64,000 nucleotides of DNA from Lytechinus pictus (GCF_037042905.1 NC_087251.1:31622001-31686000), one strand, 5' to 3'. Shown: positions 17,939-54,222, counted from the stretch's first letter. Notes: a model not told the origin generated them from the letters alone. Program-made: numbers and translations.

Positions 17939-18892
17939 AAACAAGTGGAATGCCTCTGGCCGTCTCACCTGCATCACGCGATTCAATATAGCAGCAGTGC
18001 TGATTTTGAAAACTACTATAACTCGCACAAGATGTTCAGTGATACTTGGTTACTCTTATTTCCACGTTTTATGAACTAGACCAATACACTTATAGAGATA
18101 TGATGGCAATTCAACAAATACCTCCAACGTGGCCAAAGTTCTTTGACCTTACATGACCTTTGACCTTGATCATGTGACCTGAAACTCGCACAGGATGTTC
18201 AGTGATACTTGATTACTATTATGTCCAAGTTTTATGAACTAGACCAACACACTTTCAAATTTATGGCTGTAATTCAACAAATACCCCAATTTGGCCAAAG
18301 TTCATTGACCCTAAATGACCTTTGACCTTGATCATGTGACCTGAAACTTGCACAGGATGTTCAGTAATACTTGATTACTATTATGTCCAAGTTTCATGAA
18401 TCAGATCCATAAACTTTCAAAGTTATGATGGTAATTCAACAGATACCCCCAATTCGGCCAAAGTTCATTGACCCTAAATGACCTTTGACCTTGGTCATGT
18501 GATGTGAAACTCATGCAGGATGTTCAGTGATACTTGATTAACCTTATGTATAAGTTTCATGAACTAGGTCCATATATTTTCTAAGTTATGATGACATTTC
18601 AAAAACTTAACCTTAGGTTAAGATTTTGATGTTGATTCCCCCAACATGGTCTAAGTTCATTGACCCTAAATGACCTTTGACCTTGGTCATGTGACATGAA
18701 ACTCAGGCAGGATGTTCAGTAATACTTGATTAACCTTATGGCCAAGTTTCATGAACTAGGTCCATATACTTTCTAAGTTATGCTGTCATTTCAAAAACTT
18801 AACCTCAGGTTAAGATTTGGTGTTGACGCCGCCGCCGCCGTCGCCGTCGGAAAAGCGGCGCCTATAGTCTCACTCTGCTATGCAGGTGAGAC
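17939..18892 (-). mobile_element. Helentron-associated (HINE/DINE-1-like) element with ~162-bp internal tandem array
   Basis: SubTIRs GTCTCACCTGCAT / ATGCAGGTGAGAC, short GCC-AGA-GGC stem near the end, insertion in an A-run, (GCC)n tract, about five TGACCTTTGACC units. Confidence 0.8.
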
Positions 18893-23879: not shown

Positions 23880-26060
23880 TCATTCATCCTTTCTGAGCTC
23901 ATATATCTCTCTCTCCTTTTCAATCCATCTCAGTCTCACCCTAACCCCTCCGCCCTCCCTCAATCAACTTTTCTATCATCTGTTTCTCTTCCCCCTTTCT
24001 CTCTCCTCATTCCATCTCAGTCTGACCCTGACCCCCTCCCTCAATTTGCTAGCTGTTCTACATTTTGTTTCTCTCTCCGGCCCTCCTCATTCCATCTCAA
24101 TCTCACCCTGACCCCCTCCCAATATACTTTCCTATCATTCTCCACGGACTCCACCCGCCTCTCTCTCCTCATTCCATCTCAGTCTCACCCTGACCCCCTC
24201 CATCAATTTACTTGTCTATGTTTCTCTTCACCCCCCCTCTCTCTCTCTGCTCATCATCCATCTCAGCCTCACCCTGACCCCTCCCTCAATCTACTTCTCT
24301 ATCATCAGTCTGTTTCTCTCCCCACCCTCCTCTCTCTCCCCATTCCATCTCAGTCTCATCTGTTTATCGACCCGTCTCACCCTGACTTCTCTCTCAATCT
24401 ACTTTTCTATCATATGTTTCTCTCTCCACCCCTCCCCCTCTCTCCTCATTCCATCTCAGTCTCACCTTGACCCCCTCCATCAATTTACTTTTCTATCATA
24501 TGTTTTTCTCTCCACCCCTCCCCTCTCTCCTCATTCCATCTCAGTCTCACACTGACCCCCTCCATCAATTTACTTTTCTATGTTTCTCTCCACCCCCTCT
24601 CTCTCCTCACTCTGTCTCACCCTGACCCCTCCCTCAATCTACTTTTCAATCTCCTGTTACTCTCTCCAATATCCACCCCCCCGTATTCCATCTCTGTCTC
24701 ACCCTGAACCCCCCGACTCTCCCTTAATCTACTTTTCTATCATCTGTTTCTCTTCACCCCCTCCTCATTCCATCTCAGTCTCACCCCGACCCCTCCCTCA
24801 ATCTACTTTTCTATTATTATTCTGTTTCTCTCTCTACGCCCAACCCCCTCCTCCTTCCATCTCAGTCTCATCCTGACCCCTCCCTCAATCTAATTTTCAA
24901 TCTCCTGTTTCTCTTTCCACCCCCTCTCTCTCCTAATTCCATCTGTCTCCTCCGTCAATCTACTTTTCAATCTTCTGTTTCTCTCTCCACCTCTCTCTAT
25001 CTCTTCTCATAGAAAATACTTTTCTATTATCATTCTGTTTCTCTCTCTACGCCCAACCATCTCTCTCTCCTCCTTCCATCTCAGTCTCATCCTGACCCCT
25101 CCCTCAATTAATCTACTTTTCTATCATCTGTTTTTCTCTCTCCACCCCCCTCTCTCCTCATTCCATCTCAGTCTCATCCTGACCCCTCCCTCAATTAATC
25201 TACTTTTCTATCATCTGTTTTTCTCTCTCCACCCCCCTCTCTCCTCATTCCATCTCAGTCTCATCCTGACCCCTCCCTTCGCTCAATCTACTTTTCTATC
25301 ATCTGTTTCTCTCTCCACTCCCCCTCTATCTCTCCTCATTCCATCTCAGTCTCACCCTGACCCCTCCCTTCGCTCAATCTACTTTTCTATCATCCGTTTC
25401 TCTCTCCACTCCCCCTCTCTCTCCTCATTCCATCTCAGTCTGACCCCCTCCCTCAATTTGCTAGCTGTTCTACATTTTGTTTCTCTCTCCGGCCCTCCTC
25501 ATTCCATCTCAATCTCACCCTGACCCCCTCCCAATATACTTTCCTATCATTCTCTACGGACTCCTCCCGCCTCTCTCTCCTCATTCCATCTCAGTCTCAC
25601 CCTGACCCCTCCCTTCGCTCAATCTACTTTTCTATCATCTGTTTCTCTCTCCACTTTCCATCTCTCCTCATTCCATCTCAGTCTCATCCTGACCCCTCCT
25701 TTTGCTCAATCTACTTTTCTATCATCTGTTTCTCTCTCCACTCCCCCTCTCTCTCCTCATTCCATCTGTCTCACCCTGACCCCTCCCTTCGCTCAATCTA
25801 CTTTTCTATCATCTGTTTCTCTCTCCACTCCCCCTCTATCTCTCCTCATTCCATCTCAGTCTCACCCTGACCCCTCCCTTTGCTCAATCTACTTTTCTAT
25901 CATCTGTTTCTCTCTCCACTCCCCCTCTCTCTCCTCATTCCATCTCGATCTCACCCTGACCCCCTCCCAATATATTTTCCTATCATTCTCCATGGACTCC
26001 ACCCGCCTCTCTCTCCTCATTCCATCTCAGTCTCACCCTGACCCACTCCTTCTATTTTTC
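23880..26060. repeat. CT-rich minisatellite, ~75-80-bp unit
   Basis: Repeating CTCCTCATTCCATCTCAGTCTCACCCTGACCCCTCCCTCAATCTACTTTTCTATCATCTGTTTCTCTCTCCAC, roughly 25-30 copies. Confidence 0.95.
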
Positions 26061-29675: not shown

Positions 29676-31197
29676 AAAAATGATAAAAACATAATTAACC
29701 TGGGCAAAATACAAAAGGTAAAGCAAAATGGCTTCAAGAAGCAATTCACAAGCTCATATTACTTTTATATTTAAATTCAAAGAAGTTGAGTTAACAGCAA
29801 GATTAGAATCAATGGGTAAACTATTCCAGAGAGTGGGTCGAGTATATTTGAACCTATTGTTGAATAACACTGGGAAGCATACACACTTGATAATACAATG
29901 GTTCCCTCCTGTATAAACTAGGGCTGTGTTTTCCAAAGTTTCATCTTCACAAACTTGAAAGCAAGTTTACATAGTTCTACCACCAAGTTTCCACGTCAAA
30001 TAAGTCTGTAAAGCTGCCTAATAGGGCATTAATTAATCCCATAACTTGCTATACCTATACAGGTCTATGTGAACGCCACACACAGTAAGTTTGGAAGAAA
30101 AAAAAACTGCAACACACTTTTATCATGTTTCTATCAATAATTTGCTGGGCGTTGCATTTAATCTATTCATCAAAATATAGTGAAAGACACATAAGACATA
30201 TATGTGTAGTACATTGCAGACTATTGTCAAGCAATTAATTTCTTATCAAAAATGCATCTTATTATCAATTAGTGTCATATTATTCTAGGTTATGATCTGG
30301 AAGTTGAACATTTATGATCATACACCAATTCATGCTCTAAATAGAAAGATCACTGAAGGTGATTAAAACCCCTGTTATGGTTGTGCAATTTCCAAACCAT
30401 TTGAAATATGAATCATGCATGTTTTTACCCCGAAATGAACACTGGTTCCAACTTCCACAAGTACTGGTCAAAAACTCAGGAAGTAGTTTGATCCCTAATG
30501 AGTTTCCCCTGAGGCTTCAACAATAAGCACATTTAGGCAGGTTGTGAAAAGTATCCCCCCCAAAAAAAAAAAATTTAAATGACTGCTGTGTATAAATGGG
30601 GCCAGTTCAGTATGACACACAAAAAAACTGCTAATAGTGTCACATTAGGTGAGCTACAACATAAAAGAGGGGTGTGGCTTCAACAAGCATGACAAGCTCA
30701 TCATCAAAGATTCACATTTCTTTAGAACCCTGATCAAATAAAGTAAATGAAAGAAGTCTGCAAAAATAATATTTTCAGGCACCAACCTATCACCCGTTAT
30801 AAAAACCTGGAATCTTGAACAAGTGTCAAGCAAGTCACAATAAATGGCACCAACATCTCATTAAGTCAAAGTCGGTAGTATAATATTGATCTTAACTACT
30901 GTACTTAAATGCTGTATTGTAGTGCAATGTAGGTGGGTTTTAAATTCCCCAATCCTTTTAAGGCCTCCATCAATTTCAAGCTCCAAGCTTGAGATGGCGG
31001 TCTCCCACATTTTAATTGAAGATATCATATATATACCGGTATATATATATTTTTAGTTAATATACAGGTTTTAAAAAAGATAAAATTTCTAGGAATAATC
31101 AATATTACAATAATGTTACTTATATGTCAAACAATATATTGCAAAGTGTTTGCTTATTGATATACCAATGTTTAAAAATGATTATACTTGTATAAAC

Positions 31198-31203
31198 TTT
31201 TAT
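31198..31203 (-). promoter_or_regulatory. Candidate polyadenylation signal (AATAAA) of the GH31 gene
   Basis: TTTATT on + strand ~580 nt downstream of the stop codon; AT-rich context makes it non-unique. Confidence 0.35.
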
Positions 31204-31780
31204 TATTGAAAAGTAGAAATAGAATAAACTCAACTCAAATGTAGTGTACAATAATGCACATTGTAAAAAAACTACTTCTGTACAATTTTGCAAAATTACC
31301 CGATATTTTACTGGCTGACTAAAAACAAGAAACTGTAGCTAATAATTTTTGAGGTATTTTGTTCCAAACTAAGAATACCCTGTTAAAAAGACAATGATGA
31401 AGATCAATTTCCTTAATACCACTTCCTTTTTAAAATTAGTATTGCTCAACACACAGTAGGAAAATGCACAATGTAAAAAGTATGCTGGAAAGTACAAGGA
31501 AAAAAAATAAAACATTGCTGCTCGACAAATTGAAAAAATATATTCATTTTTAGTTGAATGAAATGATGAAAGTGAAAATGTCATGTGATTTATGACTTGA
31601 TATTGATGATTAGAATGATAGGACAGTAAAATGTAAAATGAGTATTTGAAGGATAATATCTGTGCAGTAAGTAGTACATAGTACATATTTCAAGAGCATT
31701 TCAAGGAATTCAAACTTCATTATGTCACTGATAAACATCACAAAATCAAATTGTTGTGACAAATCGATAAAGATAAATGT

Positions 31781-33052
31781 CTATGAGCATGGTTTATCTT
31801 TTAAGCAGTGCCCATTCTCAAAATCAAAATTATTCCAGATATCCCTAACTTCTTCGAACAGGTCTGCCCATTGTGACTTACGTCGATAGAAGACAGGGAT
31901 TTTACCAATGGGCGCTTCGACCGTTACGGTCTCACCACCCATAGATGTAATGGTCTCATCCCACAGGAAGACCCAGTCATCGGGAGGAAGGTAGACGTCC
32001 CAGGTTTCCACTTTTGATTCATACACAGGGGCAACAAGCAGATCAGGACCAAACATGTACTGGTACTTCACGCTGTAAGAATTAGGGTCAGACTCGTAAT
32101 GCAAGAAGAGTGGTCGCTGGACAGGTATGCCGTGTTCTGCATTTTCTTGGATGACCACGCGCCTGTACTTGTTCAGAGAACAGAAAATATGTGTATGATA
32201 GGCAAGCTGGGAGAGGGTGCGTTCGTTGGAGTAGAACTGGAGATTTTCGTCAGGGCGATTGCCCTCGTGGGTTCGCATCATGGTTGAAAAGGCGGCCATT
32301 TCTCCGTACCTGAATAGCAGTTCTTCGGTGCGTGTGTAGTTGAAGAGAGAGGTGAATGCTCCAATGTCGAAATGAAACAATCCAAAACCTGACAAACCAA
32401 GAGACAGGGCAGCTGGAATGACGGAGGCAATGCCATCACTCAAACTAAAATCAACAAACTGATCCCCTGCCCATGTCATTACACCATACTTCTGAGCACC
32501 GCTGAACCCTGCTCGCATCCAGTAAAGAACTTCTCCCAACATGCCGGCTTCCTCTATTCCTTCCCTGTTGACTTGAGCCCACAGTGTTGGCCATACATTG
32601 TGTAGTTCCATACCTGACTTACCATTGCTGAAATAGGCATCAGTTGGTAAATACTCCCCAAAGTCTGCCATCCACCCACTGATTCCCAATTCCAATACAT
32701 TCTTCTTGATGATACGGTCTTTGTACCACTGAGCAGCTTGAGGGTTGGTGATGTCTACAATGCCACAGATGAACTCGCCATAGTCCAATAGATAAGACTT
32801 TCCATCTTTGTCCAGGATAAGATAGCCAAGATTTTCAGCTTCCTTGAAGAGGTTCCCTTCCTGATTGAGATTGAGATTTATGTAAACCAAAACCTGGATA
32901 CCTTGTTCTTTGAGCTCAGCGATAACTGTATCAAGGCCTGGGTAGTGTTTGGAATCCCACTCCCAGTTCCAGAAGATGCGCCTCCCAAAGGAAGTCTTGA
33001 TTCGTCCTGCCCAGTCTTGGATCCAAACAGCACTGACCTTTATGCCACTGTC
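31781..33052 (-). CDS. yihQ: Sulfoquinovosidase-like gene, terminal exon 4 (423 aa + stop; catalytic barrel and C-terminal domain)
   Basis: Acceptor CTCTTAG|GAC; open frame through the GH31 catalytic motifs to TAG at 31783-31781. Confidence 0.95.
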   Translation of the reverse strand, partial: DSGIKVSAVWIQDWAGRIKTSFGRRIFWNWEWDSKHYPGLDTVIAELKEQGIQVLVYINLNLNQEGNLFKEAENLGYLILDKDGKSYLLDYGEFICGIVDITNPQAAQWYKDRIIKKNVLELGISGWMADFGEYLPTDAYFSNGKSGMELHNVWPTLWAQVNREGIEEAGMLGEVLYWMRAGFSGAQKYGVMTWAGDQFVDFSLSDGIASVIPAALSLGLSGFGLFHFDIGAFTSLFNYTRTEELLFRYGEMAAFSTMMRTHEGNRPDENLQFYSNERTLSQLAYHTHIFCSLNKYRRVVIQENAEHGIPVQRPLFLHYESDPNSYSVKYQYMFGPDLLVAPVYESKVETWDVYLPPDDWVFLWDETITSMGGETVTVEAPIGKIPVFYRRKSQWADLFEEVRDIWNNFDFENGHCLKDKPCS

Positions 33053-36000
33053 CTAAGAGCAAAAAAAAAAAAATCATAAAGAAGTCTTTGATTGATAGAG
33101 AAATGTGTTAAAAAAGTTAACAAATGGATGACAAGAAAAAAGTTGCTTCTAAATGATTCAACAACAACAACAAAATTCTAGTGGTTTATTTCTCTTGGTG
33201 ATGCTATTGATAAACCTGCTACATGTTCTTCACTTTTGGGGAGGGGCATGAAAGTGATCTTTCAGTCATGATGGGGAGACAATAGAATGTTCCAAGTTTG
33301 AAATGTAATCAAACATACCATACATTTAAGTTATCAAAAGATATATAAGTTTCTTGAGTAGTTTGAATGTCATCTGAAATGAAAGCTGTTCCAATGTTAT
33401 AACATTTACCATTGCCATTTTCAAGTATGTCAGCATTCTTTCTGTACCGCCCTGTAGACCAAGAACCACTCCGTTGTACACCCAGTCCGGGACAGGTGGC
33501 TGTCTACCCTGGAAGCCTGTAAACTGACTGACGACATCCACATAAGATGGCCCGGTGAAGAAATGGACCTTCCCTGGGGAACCATTCAGAATGTACACCT
33601 CGTGGAAGTCATCGAAGCGGAAGTCAAACTCTGCATAGCTTGTGGTTGTAAAATGGGCGTAGTACTTTCTGGATGAAAGGAAGGTTGGTTGAGCCCAGTA
33701 GGTTGTGTAGTAATCGCCTCCACCATTATCATTGTTGTTGGAAAGCAGTGTTATCAGTGAACTCTTGTTCCTACCAACTCCCTATAGATAACAGCAAGCA
33801 TTGAAAACATATAATTAATTATAAAATAAACAACAACAGAAAATGTTAATAATGTAGAGAATAGAGTACTCTTTTAAATATGGACCATTCACATTAATTT
33901 TGAACATGATTACTATGTGATGAGGAGCATTTTATCTGACAGGTTGTCTGAGCTGACAGCTTTCCTTTATTTTGATTGGCTAAGAATCATTGTTACTATG
34001 GCAACTGTTGGACAAATCACTTTGTCAGACAAAGCATCTAACAGGTCACTGCATAAAATGCTTACCTGATTCATAACCACCAACTCATGGGTAAAAATTG
34101 CAATATCTATATAAACTTAAAATAACATAAAATGTCAATAAAAAATTAAAAACATAGATTTTTGTGAAATCTAGATATGAAAACCCATATAGACTACGTT
34201 ATTTTCTATTTTACAAATTTTTTCTGCAATAACATGATGCATAGCCGAGACCTTGGGAGATAACAGTTCCCCTAGGACTAATAAGAATAAAAATAACCTA
34301 GGGGGTATATCATAAAAGATAAGATCACAACAAAATAAATATGATCGAAATTTATAATTGACTGTAAATTTTTGTACATTGTTTGCTATCAACTTATACC
34401 GGTACTCATTGTAGCGGCATGAATATAATTTGGTATATATACTCAACTGGTATTACATATTGTGTGGGGTAGTGAGGTCTCCTAGCTCAGGCATGAGATC
34501 ATTCGGTTATTACTCTATGATTGTATTATGTTATTATAAACATATCCACTAGCGTATCCAGCATCAACTACGACAAAGAAATGTATGGGCCCATGCACAA
34601 GCATAATAGAGTCACTATTGTCCACTATTGTCCCCAGACAATTGGGCATGAAATGCTTTGTAGGATCTGATGCTGGATACACACCTGATATCTGAATACT
34701 GTTTGGTTTAGTTTAGGAATCACATATATGATTCATCATAGTTTACCGTTAGTTAACCAGTTCTTGTTATTAATTGTCTGTTAAATATTTTCTGTTTACT
34801 TATATCAATTTCAATAATATTTGCTTTAAGATAACTAAGGTCATTAAAGAAGGGGTGATGATGTTTATTCATTACATTACAATTATTAGGCCAACAAGTT
34901 AATGAATTTATATTGCACAAATTCAGATTAATTATCATATAAATTACAATCATTGATTACCAATCATTATTGTTTACCAAACAACAGTCATTCAACTCAA
35001 ATACTATATTATTCAGGTTTCCTTTAATCATGTTAATATCCTTATCCATTGTACATTTCATTAGTATCATTGAGACTTATTCCTAGTGGGTATATTTGAA
35101 GTTATTTACAAGTTGTTCAGTCATTTTTTAATTATGTTATTGTTGAAAAATGAATATTAACACTGTGTTTATGTTGGTTTGTTAAGCGAACTGCACTGGT
35201 TGTTGACAGTTGATGCTTGTCGCTGGTTAAAAGGTTTCTTCGCTTGTCATTGGCTATGTCGACCTAGAAACTTCATTACAAGGCCATATTTGGTGTCAAG
35301 CTGTTGACTTATGCGTCATCATTATTACGGAAGAAGTTGAAGAAGGAATAAACAGACAAGTAACTGTAAAGCCGTTGTTTGAGTCTTCAATTAGCGTGTT
35401 CGAACTAAGCAATTAAGAATTTCCATGTGTAGTTTAAGAAAGGCAGCCAAACTTATGCTACAGGATCCTGGACTATTAAGGTAAATTTATTTCTAACAAT
35501 TCTCTATCATAAGGAGACAAAACTCACCTGCTCTTGAACCCAGAGAGGGAAAGTGCGCCCTCTCATGTCAAAGTATGTAAACTGCTCCCCACCTCCATAC
35601 ACCTTTTCTCCCTCTTCGGCATAAAGGCGGATCCATACTCTGTCAACATAAGATGGAATCCCAGCAAACTCAAGGTACATAGCTTCTGGGGAGGACACAA
35701 AGTCCACAGCAACAGCTCCCTGAAGATAACAAAATAATAACAATTCTACAATTTATTCATTAGAATAAAAATAATAAAACACTAGTATTAAATGCATGTA
35801 GCAATCTAACAATGCATTTTAAGAGCAGAAAATAATTTTGAATATTATGCCTTATTTCAGAGCACTATTTCAGACCAGAATATGCAAAGCATTTATTTAT
35901 TCCAATTTGATTTTTGCCAAAGTCAAAGAGATTAGTGTAGTTGCACAAGATTTGCCTAAGGCACAGTCACCTGTATGTTCATGATTGCACACATTCAAAT

Positions 36001-36634
36001 CCACTGTGGTGCTGATATACTTTCATGAAAATGGCTAGCGGACAAGAAGCATTGATTTTGTTGCAAAACAATTAGAGCTGAATTAGGGTCCACATGTAAC
36101 TTTGGCATGTATGGCAAACATGTTTAGGTAAATATGCAATCTGGTGAAATTCCGTACAAATAAAATGATTTTTTCAACAATTCATCTTGCAATTTCATTA
36201 TAAATACTAAGAGTAGCAGAAGAATCAGTGAATCCAAAGGAAGCATTTAAATTAAATAATGAAAATTGCTTGATCTGTCATGATGTCTATTACTTTACCT
36301 GTTCATCACACCCTGAAACACTGAACGTGACCCTCTGTGTAACAATGTTTTGTTCTCCTCTTTCTTCCTTTCCAACAAAGAATTTCTGCAATGGGATCCT
36401 GCTTTTAACAAAATCGTTGATTTTGTAATTACCATGCAGACTGCAAGTTGTGACTGATCCTGTGCCGATGAAAATGAAGGGAGAAGGTGGTTTGTGGTCT
36501 ATGATCAGGACATCATTGGCTCTCACGGACAGGCGGTTGTCACTTTCATCAAAATGAAATGAACCGCAAGAAGCCAAAGAGGCACAGGTGGTAAAAGCGA
36601 AGACTATCGTGCAAACTTTGTTGATAAGACCCAT
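31781..36634 (-). CDS. yihQ: GH31 sulfoquinovosidase-like (YihQ-like) glycosidase with signal peptide; spliced CDS join(36634-36299,35719-35528,33781-33410,33052-31781), 723 aa
   Basis: Four exons join in frame with GT-AG phase-0 introns. Motifs match E. coli YihQ as recalled: YGGGEQFTYFDMRG, PLWVQEQ/GVGRNK, GGDYYTTYWAQPTF, GRQPPVPDW, GLQGG, WIQDW..SFGRRIFWNW, GWMADFGEYLP (nucleophile, 32665-32663), WAGDQ (acid/base, 32464-32462), MMRTHEGNRP, RPLFLHY, QYMFGPDLLVAPV, APIGKIPVFYR. Kozak ACCATGG; hydrophobic N-terminus. Confidence 0.93.
33410..33781 (-). CDS. yihQ: Sulfoquinovosidase-like gene, coding exon 3 (124 aa)
   Basis: Acceptor CTATAG|GGA, donor ATG|GTAAAT; encodes GVGRNKSS...GGDYYTTYWAQPTF...GRQPPVPDWVYNGVVLGLQGGTE. 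Confidence 0.93.
35528..35719 (-). CDS. yihQ: Sulfoquinovosidase-like gene, coding exon 2 (64 aa)
   Basis: Acceptor TTCAG|GGA, donor CAG|GTGAGT; encodes RVWIRLYAEEGEKVYGGGEQFTYFDMRGRTFPLWVQEQ. Confidence 0.92.
36299..36634 (-). CDS. yihQ: Sulfoquinovosidase-like gene, coding exon 1 (112 aa, signal peptide MGLINKVCTIVFAFTTCASLASCG)
   Basis: ATG in ACCATGG context; donor CAG|GTAAAG at 36299/36298. An acceptor-like TTTGCAG near 36649 suggests an upstream 5' UTR intron. Confidence 0.85.
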
Positions 36635-38257
36635 GGTGACTGTGTAATCTGCAAATTTTTGTGCAAAACAAATTGAATTTCAAGATCATTATTAGTTTGT
36701 TTTTTGTTTCAATCTGCATTACGTTTCCCAACGAGGGGCACTCAACTCTTATGGTATAAACATGCATGACAGAGAAACAAGACATGTAAAATGGGCAGCT
36801 TTTCTGGTAAAGACCTTATGTGCATCTACATGTAGGTGTCAAAGGTTGTTTTTTTTTAATTAGAAAATTGGTTCATTCACTCACTTTTCCCCCAAGTAAG
36901 TATGGCATTTCATAGAATAGAGAAGCATGATTTGTAAACTTGTAAAGAACATAAAATACACACAGAAAGCAGAGGGAATTCAATTTCATATGTTCTCATG
37001 AGAATAGCATGGCAAAAAACATATTTCTCATTGTTGTATGAATGAGGTGGAGAAACAGAGTGAAAACCCATATTTTCAGAAACATTTAAGTTCTTTAAAG
37101 TAACAGTAGCCTATACAATAATACATTCATGCAAGTGCCAATAAGCACACTAGGCTTTAAAAAAAAGGCACAAATGGAAAATGAGGAATTTCATTGACAT
37201 TGATGAGAATTAAATCTTGTTTTAAGTCAATACATTCTGTAACCAAAACTAAACGGTATAGATATATTGTTTAATTTTCTTTCATTTAAGAAATATTATG
37301 CCTTGTGATATTGTCATTGGCATTCAATGTGATTTGTGTCTGGAGACAATAGTTGTACATTAAATATAAATAATGAATATATTGTTTATATACTATCATT
37401 CTGATCAACATAATTATTAAGCCCATATCAGTAGAATATATAGTCTATAGCATCCATGAGCTGCAACAGGGATTATTTCTTCAAGGATCCAGGTTTAAGT
37501 TTCAGTTGTGTTTTAATCATTTTCACTGACATTCCTTTATGATTGAAATTAATATTATCAACATTATTATTGTTGTTGTTAATACTATCATTATTCTTAT
37601 CATCAGTAGTACTACTTTTATTAATGCAAATATATATATATATATTATTATTACTGTTTATATACATTGTACTCTTTGCAACAAAAGGGGTCACATTTTT
37701 CCCCACTTGTAATTGTATACCTTCTCAGTGTCATCATAAATGCCTGCATTTTAATTTTATTTATAATTTTAAGTGAGTTTTGCTGTAGATTTCTCCTGTA
37801 TGTCTCAACTCTCAACCTTACCTTCTCTCTACCCTTTTTAACCCTAATTTTGCTTTCAAATAATTCCCAATGGAACACAACATGCCATCATGTACCCTGC
37901 TTTTAAATCCTTCATAAACCCACTAGTGCATTCAGACAGAAAGGGATGGTTGTTTCACAAACTTTCAAGGATTCTCAATTGAAAACAACACTGCTCACTG
38001 CACAGTAGGTCCACAAAAGACTGACAATAGATAAAAGGTTTAATATTATGAGAGTATTTTTCTTCTCACTAGACAGAATACGCAGAAAAGACCACTGTTG
38101 AAGACTGGTTAGGGCTTACAAGTTACAATTTATGTGATAGATATGTTGCTTGAAAGACTCTAAACTGGGATATCTGAGTTCCAGGCATTTGATACTGACC
38201 TACATATATAAGTATGAAATTAGATGAATGAAGAAAAATAAAAACAAAATGAAAAAT

Positions 38258-39436
38258 AAACAAGTGGAACGCCTCTGGCAGTCTCGCCTGCATTACGCGA
38301 TTTAATATAGCAGCAGTGCTAACTTTGAAAACTACTATAAAATAATCATTCACAAAAACACCATTCATATAATGACATAATACCACGTTCATTGACCATA
38401 AATGACATTTGAACGGTGACTTAAGACTTGCCAACTACATCCATGTCCACATTTCATTCACTCTCTCTATAAACTTTCAAAGTTATGATGGCAATTCAAC
38501 AATTACCCGAACATGGCCTAAGTTTATTGACCTTAACTGACCTTTGACCTTGGTTTTGTGACCTGAAACTCACAGGGGATGTTCAGTGATACTTGATTAC
38601 TCTTATATCCCAAGTTTTATGAACTAGATCCATAAACTTTCAGTTAGGATGGTAATTTAACAAATACCCCCAACACGGCCAAAATTCATTGACCTTTAAT
38701 GACCTTTGACCATGGTCATGTGACCTGAAACTCGTACAGGATGTTTAGTGATACTTGATTACTCTTATGTCCAAGTTTTAAGAACTAAATCCGTAAACTT
38801 TCAGAGTTAGGATGGTAATTTAACAAATACCCCCAACATGGCCAAAGTTCATTGACCTTAAATGACCATTGACCATGGTCATGTGACCTGAAACTCGCAC
38901 ATGATGTTTGCTAATACTTGATTAACCTTATGTCCAAGTTTCATGAACTAGATCCATAAATTTTCAAAGTTATGATAGTAATTCAACAAATACCCCCAAC
39001 TTGACCAAAGTTCATTGACCCTAAATGACCTTTGACCTTGGTCACGTGACCTGAAACTCGAGCAGGATGTTCACTAATACTTGATTAACCTTATGCCCAA
39101 GTTACATGAACTAGGTCCATATACTTTCTAAGTTATGATGTCATTTCAAAAACTTAACCTTCGGTTAAGATTTTGAAAATAATTCTCCCAACATGGTCAA
39201 AGTTCATTGACCCTAAATGACCTTTGACCTTGGTCATGTGACCTGAAACTCAGGCAGGATGTTCAGTAATACTTGATTAACCTTATGTCCAAGTTTCATG
39301 AACTAGGTCCATATACTTTCTAAGTTATGATGTCATTTCAAAAACTTAACCTTAGGTTAAGATTTGATGTTGACGCCGCCGCCGCCGCCGTCGGAAAAGC
39401 GGCGCCTCTAGTCTCGCTCTGCTATGCAGGCGAGAC
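38258..39436 (-). mobile_element. Helentron-associated element, paralog of 17939-18892
   Basis: Same termini (AAACAAGTGGAACGCCTCTGGCAGTCTCGCCTGCAT ... ATGCAGGCGAGAC) and ~162-bp repeats. Confidence 0.85.
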
Positions 39437-53492: not shown

Positions 53493-54222
53493 TTAAGGTT
53501 CATTCTTGCAGCATAGACACAAGAATGGTTCTTCAAGGTTTCCACAACAGTCCAGATGCTCCCAATGTTGACAAACTTCGTTCTCACATTGAGCCCAGTC
53601 AATAATATCAGCAGAAGGTGAGGGTGGTTTATCCTGATGACATCTACAACACTGGCTTATGTTGTCTTCGTTCACATTGACTCGACTGAATTCTGATGTT
53701 TCTGCTCTGTAAATCCTGAGGAAAATGCCGTTCTCAGTAATAGCAACCCCTCCTGATTCGTAGACTGGTGCTGAACGACGCTTTTTTTTCAACTTGGAAG
53801 GTGGAGTAGGCATCTTCTTCTCCAAGAAAGCCCCGATGTTTGAAGATGCCGATGAAGAGGGACCTGCATGGGATGGATGGTGCTTCTTCGTGAACTGCTG
53901 TCACAGAACTTGGTCTGGTGATCGACCCTCTCGACATCAACTGCTGCCACATTGAATGGGTAGATTCCGGCCTTCTTGAATGCAGTTTTTAGATTGTCCT
54001 CCTTCATTGACTGAAGGAAGGACTGGCAGATGAGAGATGCCATATCATACCTTGTGATGGACTGCCCGGGTTGAGAGATGAGGAAGTCTGTGCAGGCCCT
54101 GTTATACAGTAGTGTGCCTTCATGGGTCCAAAACAGCCAATGTCAAGAGGTTGCAGAATATGGCTTGTATGGGGTGGCAAAAGGAAGAGTATGATGTTAT
54201 GGCGGCGTGCTTCTTCAATGAA
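53493..54222 (-). pseudogene. pogo/Fot1/Tigger-like (DDE_1) transposase remnant with C-terminal PHD finger
   Basis: LFLLPPHTSHILQPLDIGCFGPMK ... AFKKAGIYPFN, then CCRC...WAQCENEVCQHWEHLDC...FLCLCC; frameshifted and 5'-truncated. Confidence 0.85.

Follow-up and report, generated by a model that had tools for sequence, protein, structure and literature searches.

Does a sea urchin encode its own enzyme for releasing sulfoquinovose (SQ) from algal sulfolipid, and does that enzyme bind the sulfonate as its bacterial relatives do? The question is raised by a gene on the minus strand of a Lytechinus pictus DNA stretch of 64,000 nucleotides (GCF_037042905.1 NC_087251.1:31622001-31686000), which we call the window and whose coordinates are counted from its first letter. 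An earlier reading, made without knowledge of the organism (the sequence-only reading), had proposed an animal-encoded sulfoquinovosidase of the secretory pathway, similar to E. coli YihQ of glycoside hydrolase family 31 (GH31). We found an intact and spliced host gene whose product, judged by its sequence, belongs to the YihQ clade, and in which a phenylalanine, Phe533, stands at the place of Tyr508 in the sulfonate pocket of YihQ. We consider it likely that the protein is a soluble sulfoquinovosidase of the secretory pathway with weaker sulfonate binding, its activity being predicted.

Identity and structure of the gene

The six best matches of the protein in the Protein Data Bank (PDB) were all sulfoquinovosidases, from four enzymes, with E-values from 3e-152 to 8e-133 (YihQ 3e-147). 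More than 90 orders of magnitude separate them from other GH31 enzymes, of which YicI came next (2e-41); α-glucosidases stood at 5e-12 and MYORG (7QQF) at 3e-11. The NCBIfam model of the YihQ family, NF007746 (PRK10426), scored 868 bits against a cut-off of 553, and the Pfam domains PF13802, PF01055 (the barrel, in a single stretch) and PF21365 were all found at or above their cut-offs. Identity to E. coli YihQ was 45.5% over 677 columns. A structure model based on an alignment of 137 rows (predicted local distance difference test, pLDDT, 92) reached template modelling (TM) scores of 0.87-0.91 to solved sulfoquinovosidases and at most 0.69 to the other GH31 structures listed; a single-sequence prediction (pLDDT 36) was discarded. 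Pocket geometry was taken from alignments.

In a quick tree of 37 rows, for which YicI of E. coli and three further GH31 frames from the same genome served as outgroups, the window protein joined YihQ (Shimodaira-Hasegawa-like approximate likelihood ratio test, SH-aLRT, 99). This tree roots inside the animals and carries a long-branch warning for the outgroups, therefore we used it for membership only. In a more careful tree of 24 rows, 21 animal rows are split from three bacterial rows by a 100/100 branch; its root is unresolved, and it carries no claim on how animals acquired the gene. Orthologues from five urchin species fall within the echinoderm part of the tree, while the MYORG-like genes of the same genome are 23-28% identical to the window protein and group apart. 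PDB matches, family model, fold and tree all side with YihQ, and by sequence the window protein is a member of the YihQ clade and not of the MYORG/α-glucosidase group; a place in the latter group was what the sequence-only reading had named as fatal to its proposal. MYORG and the lysosomal and intestinal α-glucosidases share the GH31 barrel and the catalytic pair but occupy separate branches. The seven motifs that the sequence-only reading had quoted as those of YihQ are all present in the window protein, and six occur as quoted in YihQ, which has IQGG and not LQGG.

Four more GH31 genes of the genome have long open frames (L007, L008, L009 and L012, on G000 C1, C20 and C5), and three of them bear DMIGG and are presumably MYORG-like. 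Another, L011 (C11), carries DICGF, and from this motif we take it to be lysosomal-glucosidase-like. A ciliate homologue (P0081, Paramecium sonneborni) has the full sulfoquinovosidase signature and groups in the quick trees with bacterial rows, not with animals.

What does not hold is the novelty of an animal YihQ-type enzyme. The protein shows 0 differences to XP_063958585.1, named 'sulfoquinovosidase-like' by NCBI in Lytechinus pictus, and a preprint of February 2026 (Uchida et al., bioRxiv 10.64898/2026.02.11.705467) argues the same for homologues in 65 animal species including echinoderms, with no assay in the parts available. The claim is already annotated and argued in print. According to these parts, the animal sulfoquinovosidases, which are of the same family as the window protein, occur in aquatic invertebrates and carry signal peptides and variable glycosylphosphatidylinositol (GPI) or transmembrane tails. 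In molluscs and amphioxus their expression is found mainly in the digestive organs, and digestion of algal sulfoquinovosyl diacylglycerol (SQDG) is proposed. Tridacna has no host pathway for SQ, which is proposed to be handed to bacteria, and Speciale et al. 2016 are credited with an earlier notice of animal homologues. The window protein would pass the filter of that study, with its place in the YihQ clade, one PF01055 domain and six of the seven residues kept (at most one change was allowed). Since single substitutions passed this filter, Phe forms may stand in its figures or tables; the available text makes no mention of Lytechinus, urchin, paralog, duplication, phenylalanine, KDEL or retention in the endoplasmic reticulum (ER). 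No paper was found under the urchin gene ids or 'sulfoquinovosidase-like', and the available parts of a review from July 2026 on the cycling of SQ in aquatic systems (PMC13436972) do not mention animals, invertebrates or grazers. In these partly available sources it is still a prediction that grazers themselves open one of the largest organosulfur pools. The discovery of the gene itself is ordinary, and the additions made here are small: a recurrent Tyr-to-Phe change and an anchored/soluble pair of paralogs.

The coding sequence of 723 codons and a stop (2172 nucleotides) is read without an internal stop from four minus-strand exons. The three introns of 579, 1746 and 357 nucleotides are all GT-AG and of phase 0. 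The GC content is 43-50% in the exons and 31% in the introns. The features, all on the minus strand, are as follows, with the evidence in brackets where it was recorded.

36635..36648, 5' untranslated portion of coding exon 1, following the CAG acceptor at 36651-36649
36299..36634, coding exon 1, residues 1-112 (translation, spliced contigs)
36566..36634, probable signal peptide, about residues 1-23, moderately hydrophobic (hydropathy, model, start of the family model)
35720..36298, intron 1, 579 nucleotides, GT-AG, phase 0 (contigs, reads)
35528..35719, coding exon 2, residues 113-176, PF13802 (translation, Pfam)
33782..35527, intron 2, 1746 nucleotides, GT-AG, phase 0 (contigs)
33410..33781, coding exon 3, residues 177-300, with Gln286 (YihQ Gln262) at 33454-33452
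33053..33409, intron 3, 357 nucleotides, GT-AG, phase 0 (contigs)
31781..33052, coding exon 4, residues 301-723 and stop, barrel PF01055 and C-terminal domain PF21365
32969..33019, Gln312, Arg325 and Trp328 (YihQ Gln288, Arg301 and Trp304), kept (alignment)
32663..32665, Asp430, predicted catalytic nucleophile (YihQ Asp405; alignment)
32462..32464, Asp497, predicted acid/base (YihQ Asp472; alignment)
32354..32359, Ala532-Phe533 replacing YihQ Gly507-Tyr508, altered position of the sulfonate pocket (alignment)
32267..32269, His562 (YihQ His537), kept (alignment)
30966..31780, 3' untranslated region, with AATAAA at 31204 and ATTAAA at 31016 (spliced contigs)

Four runs were mapped on 30200-38300: three contig sets, X1 and X15 from organism A and X6 from organism B, whose RNA nature is guessed or unlabelled, and the raw reads of X19. 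None of the runs listed as carrying the gene is registered as RNA. In each of the three sets a single contig runs through the four exons and lacks all three introns. We read these contigs as transcripts, since the exact loss of three introns is expected of a transcript. In X19, stranded RNA reads cover the exons to a depth of about 1-4, and their first mate falls on the plus strand, which fits minus-strand RNA for the usual library type, and two reads cross intron 1. The gene is transcribed and spliced; the intact 723-residue gene proposed by the sequence-only reading stands, and lack of transcription, which that reading had allowed to count against it, can be set aside. The spliced contigs of X1, X15 and X6 showed no alternative last exon. 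At the other end they extend 4, 29 and 154 letters past 36648-36649, at the CAG acceptor 14 nucleotides before the ATG, and therefore a further 5' exon probably exists. No listed contig piece within 30200-38300 matches it, and it could be situated in the 29-kb interval that separates the gene from the divergently oriented paralog described below. The start methionine is supported by the orthologues of S. purpuratus and Diadema, which begin at the equivalent methionine.

The altered sulfonate pocket

Eight key positions were compared using the numbering of E. coli YihQ. Seven are kept: Gln262, Gln288, Arg301, Trp304, Asp405, Asp472 and His537 correspond to Gln286, Gln312, Arg325, Trp328, Asp430, Asp497 and His562. 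The eighth, Tyr508, is replaced by Phe533, and the adjoining Gly507 by Ala532 (DIGAF compared with DIGGY). In terms of the QQRWY/KERWY signature, the glutamine pair, the arginine and the tryptophan are present and the tyrosine is not; since one canonical feature fails, we file the protein as a variant, most likely sulfoquinovosidase-like. The Phe533 codon is TTC (32356-32354), the coding sequence of exon 4 is the same in the X1 and X15 contigs as in the window, and Phe occupies this position in three urchin species. The motif list of the sequence-only reading passes over this residue, which sets the protein apart from each of the four solved sulfoquinovosidases.

The bacterial enzymes of subfamily GH31_13 used for comparison were E. 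coli YihQ (5AED, 5AEG, 5OHT), BmSQase (8R56) and the sulfoquinovosidases of E. rectale (6PNR) and A. tumefaciens (5OHY, 5OHS, 7OFX). The window protein resembles them in its fold, both catalytic aspartates and the equivalents of Gln262, Gln288, Arg301, Trp304 and His537. Unlike them, it has Phe for Tyr508, Ala for Gly507 and a signal-like N-terminal extension, and its gene has introns and no accompanying sulfoglycolysis operon.

The sulfonate pocket of YihQ has been described as 'Arg301-Trp304-Tyr508(H2O)', with the Tyr508 contact made via water (PMC8006165, seen in part), and the Q/E-RWY motif is rated important in sulfonate recognition (PMC12780224, likewise in part). In the window protein the sulfonate would be gripped directly by Arg325 and Trp328, and Phe533 would retain the ring and lose the water-bridged hydrogen bond of Tyr508. 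Sulfonate binding is therefore probably weaker, not abolished. We found no paper on Y508F, Y491F or this variant of the motif; mutant kinetics may exist in primary enzyme papers.

The distribution of Phe was taken from an alignment of 196 rows, of which 38 animal, one Paramecium and 138 other rows were tabulated and 18 cluster members left out. Among the animal rows, in which alleles and old models are included, 15 have Phe and 23 Tyr, and the Paramecium row has Tyr. A further 37 rows gave Tyr in 36 cases and, in a second Nucella copy, Q-M-K-W-F. At greater distance (147 representatives) Tyr was found in 110 and Phe in 15, and an intact Q-Q-R-W was followed by Phe in two and by Tyr in 28. In these distant relatives (P0238-P0384) the commonest signature is Q-Q-Q-W-Y, without the arginine (60 rows, compared with 28 canonical ones).

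On the 24-row tree, Tyr changed to Phe at least four times: in camarodont paralog A (the copy to which the window gene belongs), in Asterias, in one amphioxus paralog and in the caenogastropods. A single origin of Phe was rejected (approximately unbiased, AU, test, p 0.002). Phe has thus been fixed at least four times with Gln, Arg and Trp kept, and in four genera no Tyr-type copy stood next to it among the matches listed, which suggests from the alignments that Phe is compatible with the sulfoquinovosidase job. We scanned 80 bacterial loci for relatives with intact Arg and Trp and a Phe inside SQ operons and found none; since all of them keep Tyr, gene context cannot show whether Phe is tolerated. 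Two Nucella lapillus genes with consecutive locus tags (P0099, P0227) are both Phe-type, and in one of them Gln288 is replaced by Met and Arg301 by Lys. Judged by its sequence, this divergent copy makes a stronger case for changed specificity than does the urchin gene.

The paralog pair and the function of the soluble copy

The window gene (copy A) has a paralog B (P0009, XP_054758413.2, G000:C7:31687677-31722860, plus strand, loci L013/L014) which is 57% identical. The two lie head to head, and B begins 29 kb from the start of the window gene. Its first coding exon is at 31687677, 1.7 kb beyond the window, and the remainder at 31718719-31722860; the first intron, which lies between them, is about 31 kb long. 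Both copies have the same three intron positions and phases; a fifth exon, encoding a hydrophobic tail, is found only in B. Paralog B keeps all eight key residues including the tyrosine, and its tail is GPI- or membrane-like. This tail is present in copy B of all three genera (Diadema, Strongylocentrotus, Lytechinus) and in copy A of none. Since each of these genera has the two copies, the duplication predates the split between Diadema and the camarodonts. A genome search with PF13802 missed both known paralogs and says nothing on copy number.

Copy A is 96% identical to its L. variegatus and 82% to its S. purpuratus counterpart, and copy B 97% and 85%. Of 255 columns conserved in non-animal rows, copy A keeps 210 and copy B 208; being about as conserved as copy B, copy A is not decaying. 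The change of Tyr to Phe and the sequon NYT538, five residues away, arose on the same branch, that of camarodont A, after the duplication. The change of Gly to Ala came later, in Lytechinus. In urchins and amphioxus the Phe form coexists with a Tyr paralog.

An N-terminal signal peptide in the window protein is plausible. Residues 1-23 form a moderately hydrophobic extension, whose best 11-residue hydropathy of 2.11 (3.05 in B) is reached by 4 of 138 non-animal rows. The extension precedes the folded domain, since the YihQ family model aligns from residue 24 onwards and residues 5-20 are of low confidence in the structure model. The sequons NKS181, NGS242 and NYT538 are present, the first in 8 of the 12 animal rows shown and the last only in camarodont A rows. 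The sequence-only reading was right to note sequons (NKS, NYT), but their number is no support for secretion, as E. coli YihQ also has three. The window protein ends in CLKDKPCS, with neither an anchor nor a KDEL retention signal. Copy A of Diadema (P0007, P0188, P0189) is Tyr-type and ends in KDEL, while the Antedon homologue P0014 ends in HEEL and the Ptychodera isoform P0018 in ADEL; from their sequence these termini look like ER-retention signals. The idea that KDKPCS is a decayed KDEL-stop was set aside as speculation, as it needs three base changes.

We favour, as the likely reading, a soluble sulfoquinovosidase. By analogy with the chemistry of YihQ, Asp430 would attack the anomeric carbon of an α-sulfoquinovoside (SQDG, lyso-SQDG or SQ-glycerol), and Asp497 would serve as acid and then as base, so that α-SQ and diacylglycerol or glycerol would be freed with retention in a double displacement. 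After cleavage of the signal peptide the enzyme would be soluble and, more tentatively, would act on algal sulfolipid in the gut lumen or in vesicles of digestive cells, beside the membrane-anchored Tyr-type paralog. The urchin would keep the glyceride part, and SQ would go to microbes or be excreted. As for substrate, SQDG and lyso-SQDG have been isolated from urchin intestine (PMC2063370, seen in part), and edible urchins have been reported to contain SQDG.

Several points weigh against a sulfoquinovosidase with this pocket. All four solved sulfoquinovosidases have Tyr (DIGGY), and so do all 80 bacterial loci and 137 of 138 other, mostly bacterial, proteins (the remaining one has Phe); judged from these sequences, Tyr508 is under strong constraint in bacterial enzymes. 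Phe is the residue of GH31 enzymes that do not act on SQ, such as YicI and the urchin lysosomal-glucosidase-like gene with DICGF. The adjoining Gly is changed to Ala, in Lytechinus only. With a Tyr-type paralog present, the window copy would be free to diverge. For Asterias, Babylonia, Batillaria and Nucella no Tyr-type copy stood among the matches listed, by which its absence is not proven. Read depth is low in X19, the sole raw-read run, and the runs carry no tissue label. Finally, our literature search, in sources seen in part, found no enzyme assay of any animal homologue.

Some of these points would also follow if the duplicate had a changed or broadened specificity, for other α-glycosides anionic at C6 (glucose 6-sulfate, glucuronide) or for neutral α-glucosides or α-xylosides, which we regard as unlikely. 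The exchange restores the residue of non-SQ GH31s, it appeared together with NYT538 on the branch of camarodont A once the duplication had taken place and was followed by Gly to Ala, the Phe form stands beside a Tyr paralog in urchins and amphioxus, and one Nucella copy, with Q-M-K-W-F, has moved still further away. In the same direction, several carriers of Phe (Asterias, Nucella, Babylonia) are predators or scavengers. Against this reading, Lytechinus, Strongylocentrotus and Batillaria, also carriers, eat algae. Moreover, Gln312, Arg325 and Trp328 are intact, the overall conservation of the window copy equals that of the Tyr paralog, and GH31_13 enzymes are inactive on pNP (para-nitrophenyl) glucoside and xyloside (PMC12780224).

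Quite unlikely, in our estimate, is a wider version in which animals repeatedly retuned the pocket and urchins divided the task between an anchored Tyr copy and a soluble copy, ER-retained in Diadema and Phe-type in camarodonts, with a new job for the second copy, be it another anionic α-glycoside or the transfer of SQ to host lipid. In the case of transfer, the second copy would build or remodel the sulfolipid of urchin tissue instead of destroying it.

An intracellular rather than digestive handling of absorbed sulfolipid, in the ER or the endo-lysosome, either as detoxification of lyso-SQDG or as transfer of SQ to host diacylglycerol, appears improbable. Retaining GH31s can transglycosylate, and the Diadema orthologues of copy A end in KDEL, with HEEL in Antedon and ADEL in Ptychodera. 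Such an activity would help to explain sulfolipid in urchin tissues, where SQDG 14:0/16:0 and 16:0/22:1 have been reported for edible urchins (PMC12248970, seen in part) and titles in a reference list point to sulfolipid in urchin gametes, the identity of the lipid not being seen there, but diet explains tissue SQDG more simply. Furthermore, the window protein ends without a retention signal and its transcripts have no alternative last exon to supply one.

We give next to no credence to the reading that this is not a working host gene of the YihQ type at all (a MYORG/α-glucosidase-type gene, bacterial contamination, a gene lately transferred or a duplicate in decay): about 45% identity with E. 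coli YihQ is a high value for a gene of an animal and read depth is low, but the three spliceosomal introns are at positions shared with the paralog and are spliced in two organisms, the gene lies on a 49.7-Mb contig and has orthologues in five urchin species, animal and bacterial rows are split by the 100/100 branch, and the MYORG-like genes of the genome form a separate group at 23-28% identity. The window gene has long belonged to the host and does not stem from contamination.

For the favoured soluble sulfoquinovosidase, the urchin pair offers a clean test within one laboratory-animal genome, an anchored Tyr-type copy against a soluble Phe-type copy. It could show whether the predictive Arg-Trp-Tyr signature needs its Tyr, and whether animals turned a duplicate to other use.

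Downstream genes and surroundings

The sequence-only reading had seen no sulfoglycolysis genes near the gene, and this agrees with our searches. Queries with E. coli YihS, YihT and YihV gave no match anywhere in the genome, in a search made without a positive control and confined to this one pathway, to the exclusion of GH188 and of other routes for SQ. The YihU query matched one NAD-binding exon, which we take to be probably that of a 3-hydroxyisobutyrate dehydrogenase.

The window contains 25 frames of at least 110 residues, three of which belong to the gene. Among the 22 that do not, a Pfam scan of eight brought no match, and most of the remaining ones lie in simple repeats. Two overlapping minus-strand frames at 53493-54142, without a Pfam match, resemble a PHD-like Cys/His finger and the last part of a pogo-type transposase. 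A tandem repeat family of 163/192 bp is present in two copies (18020-18826 and 38469-39365), and a CT-rich array with a unit of 87 bp occupies 25061-26051. Short high-copy repeats with very deep read and contig coverage lie at 33950-34010 and 34540-34690, within intron 2, and upstream of the gene at 38256-38298.

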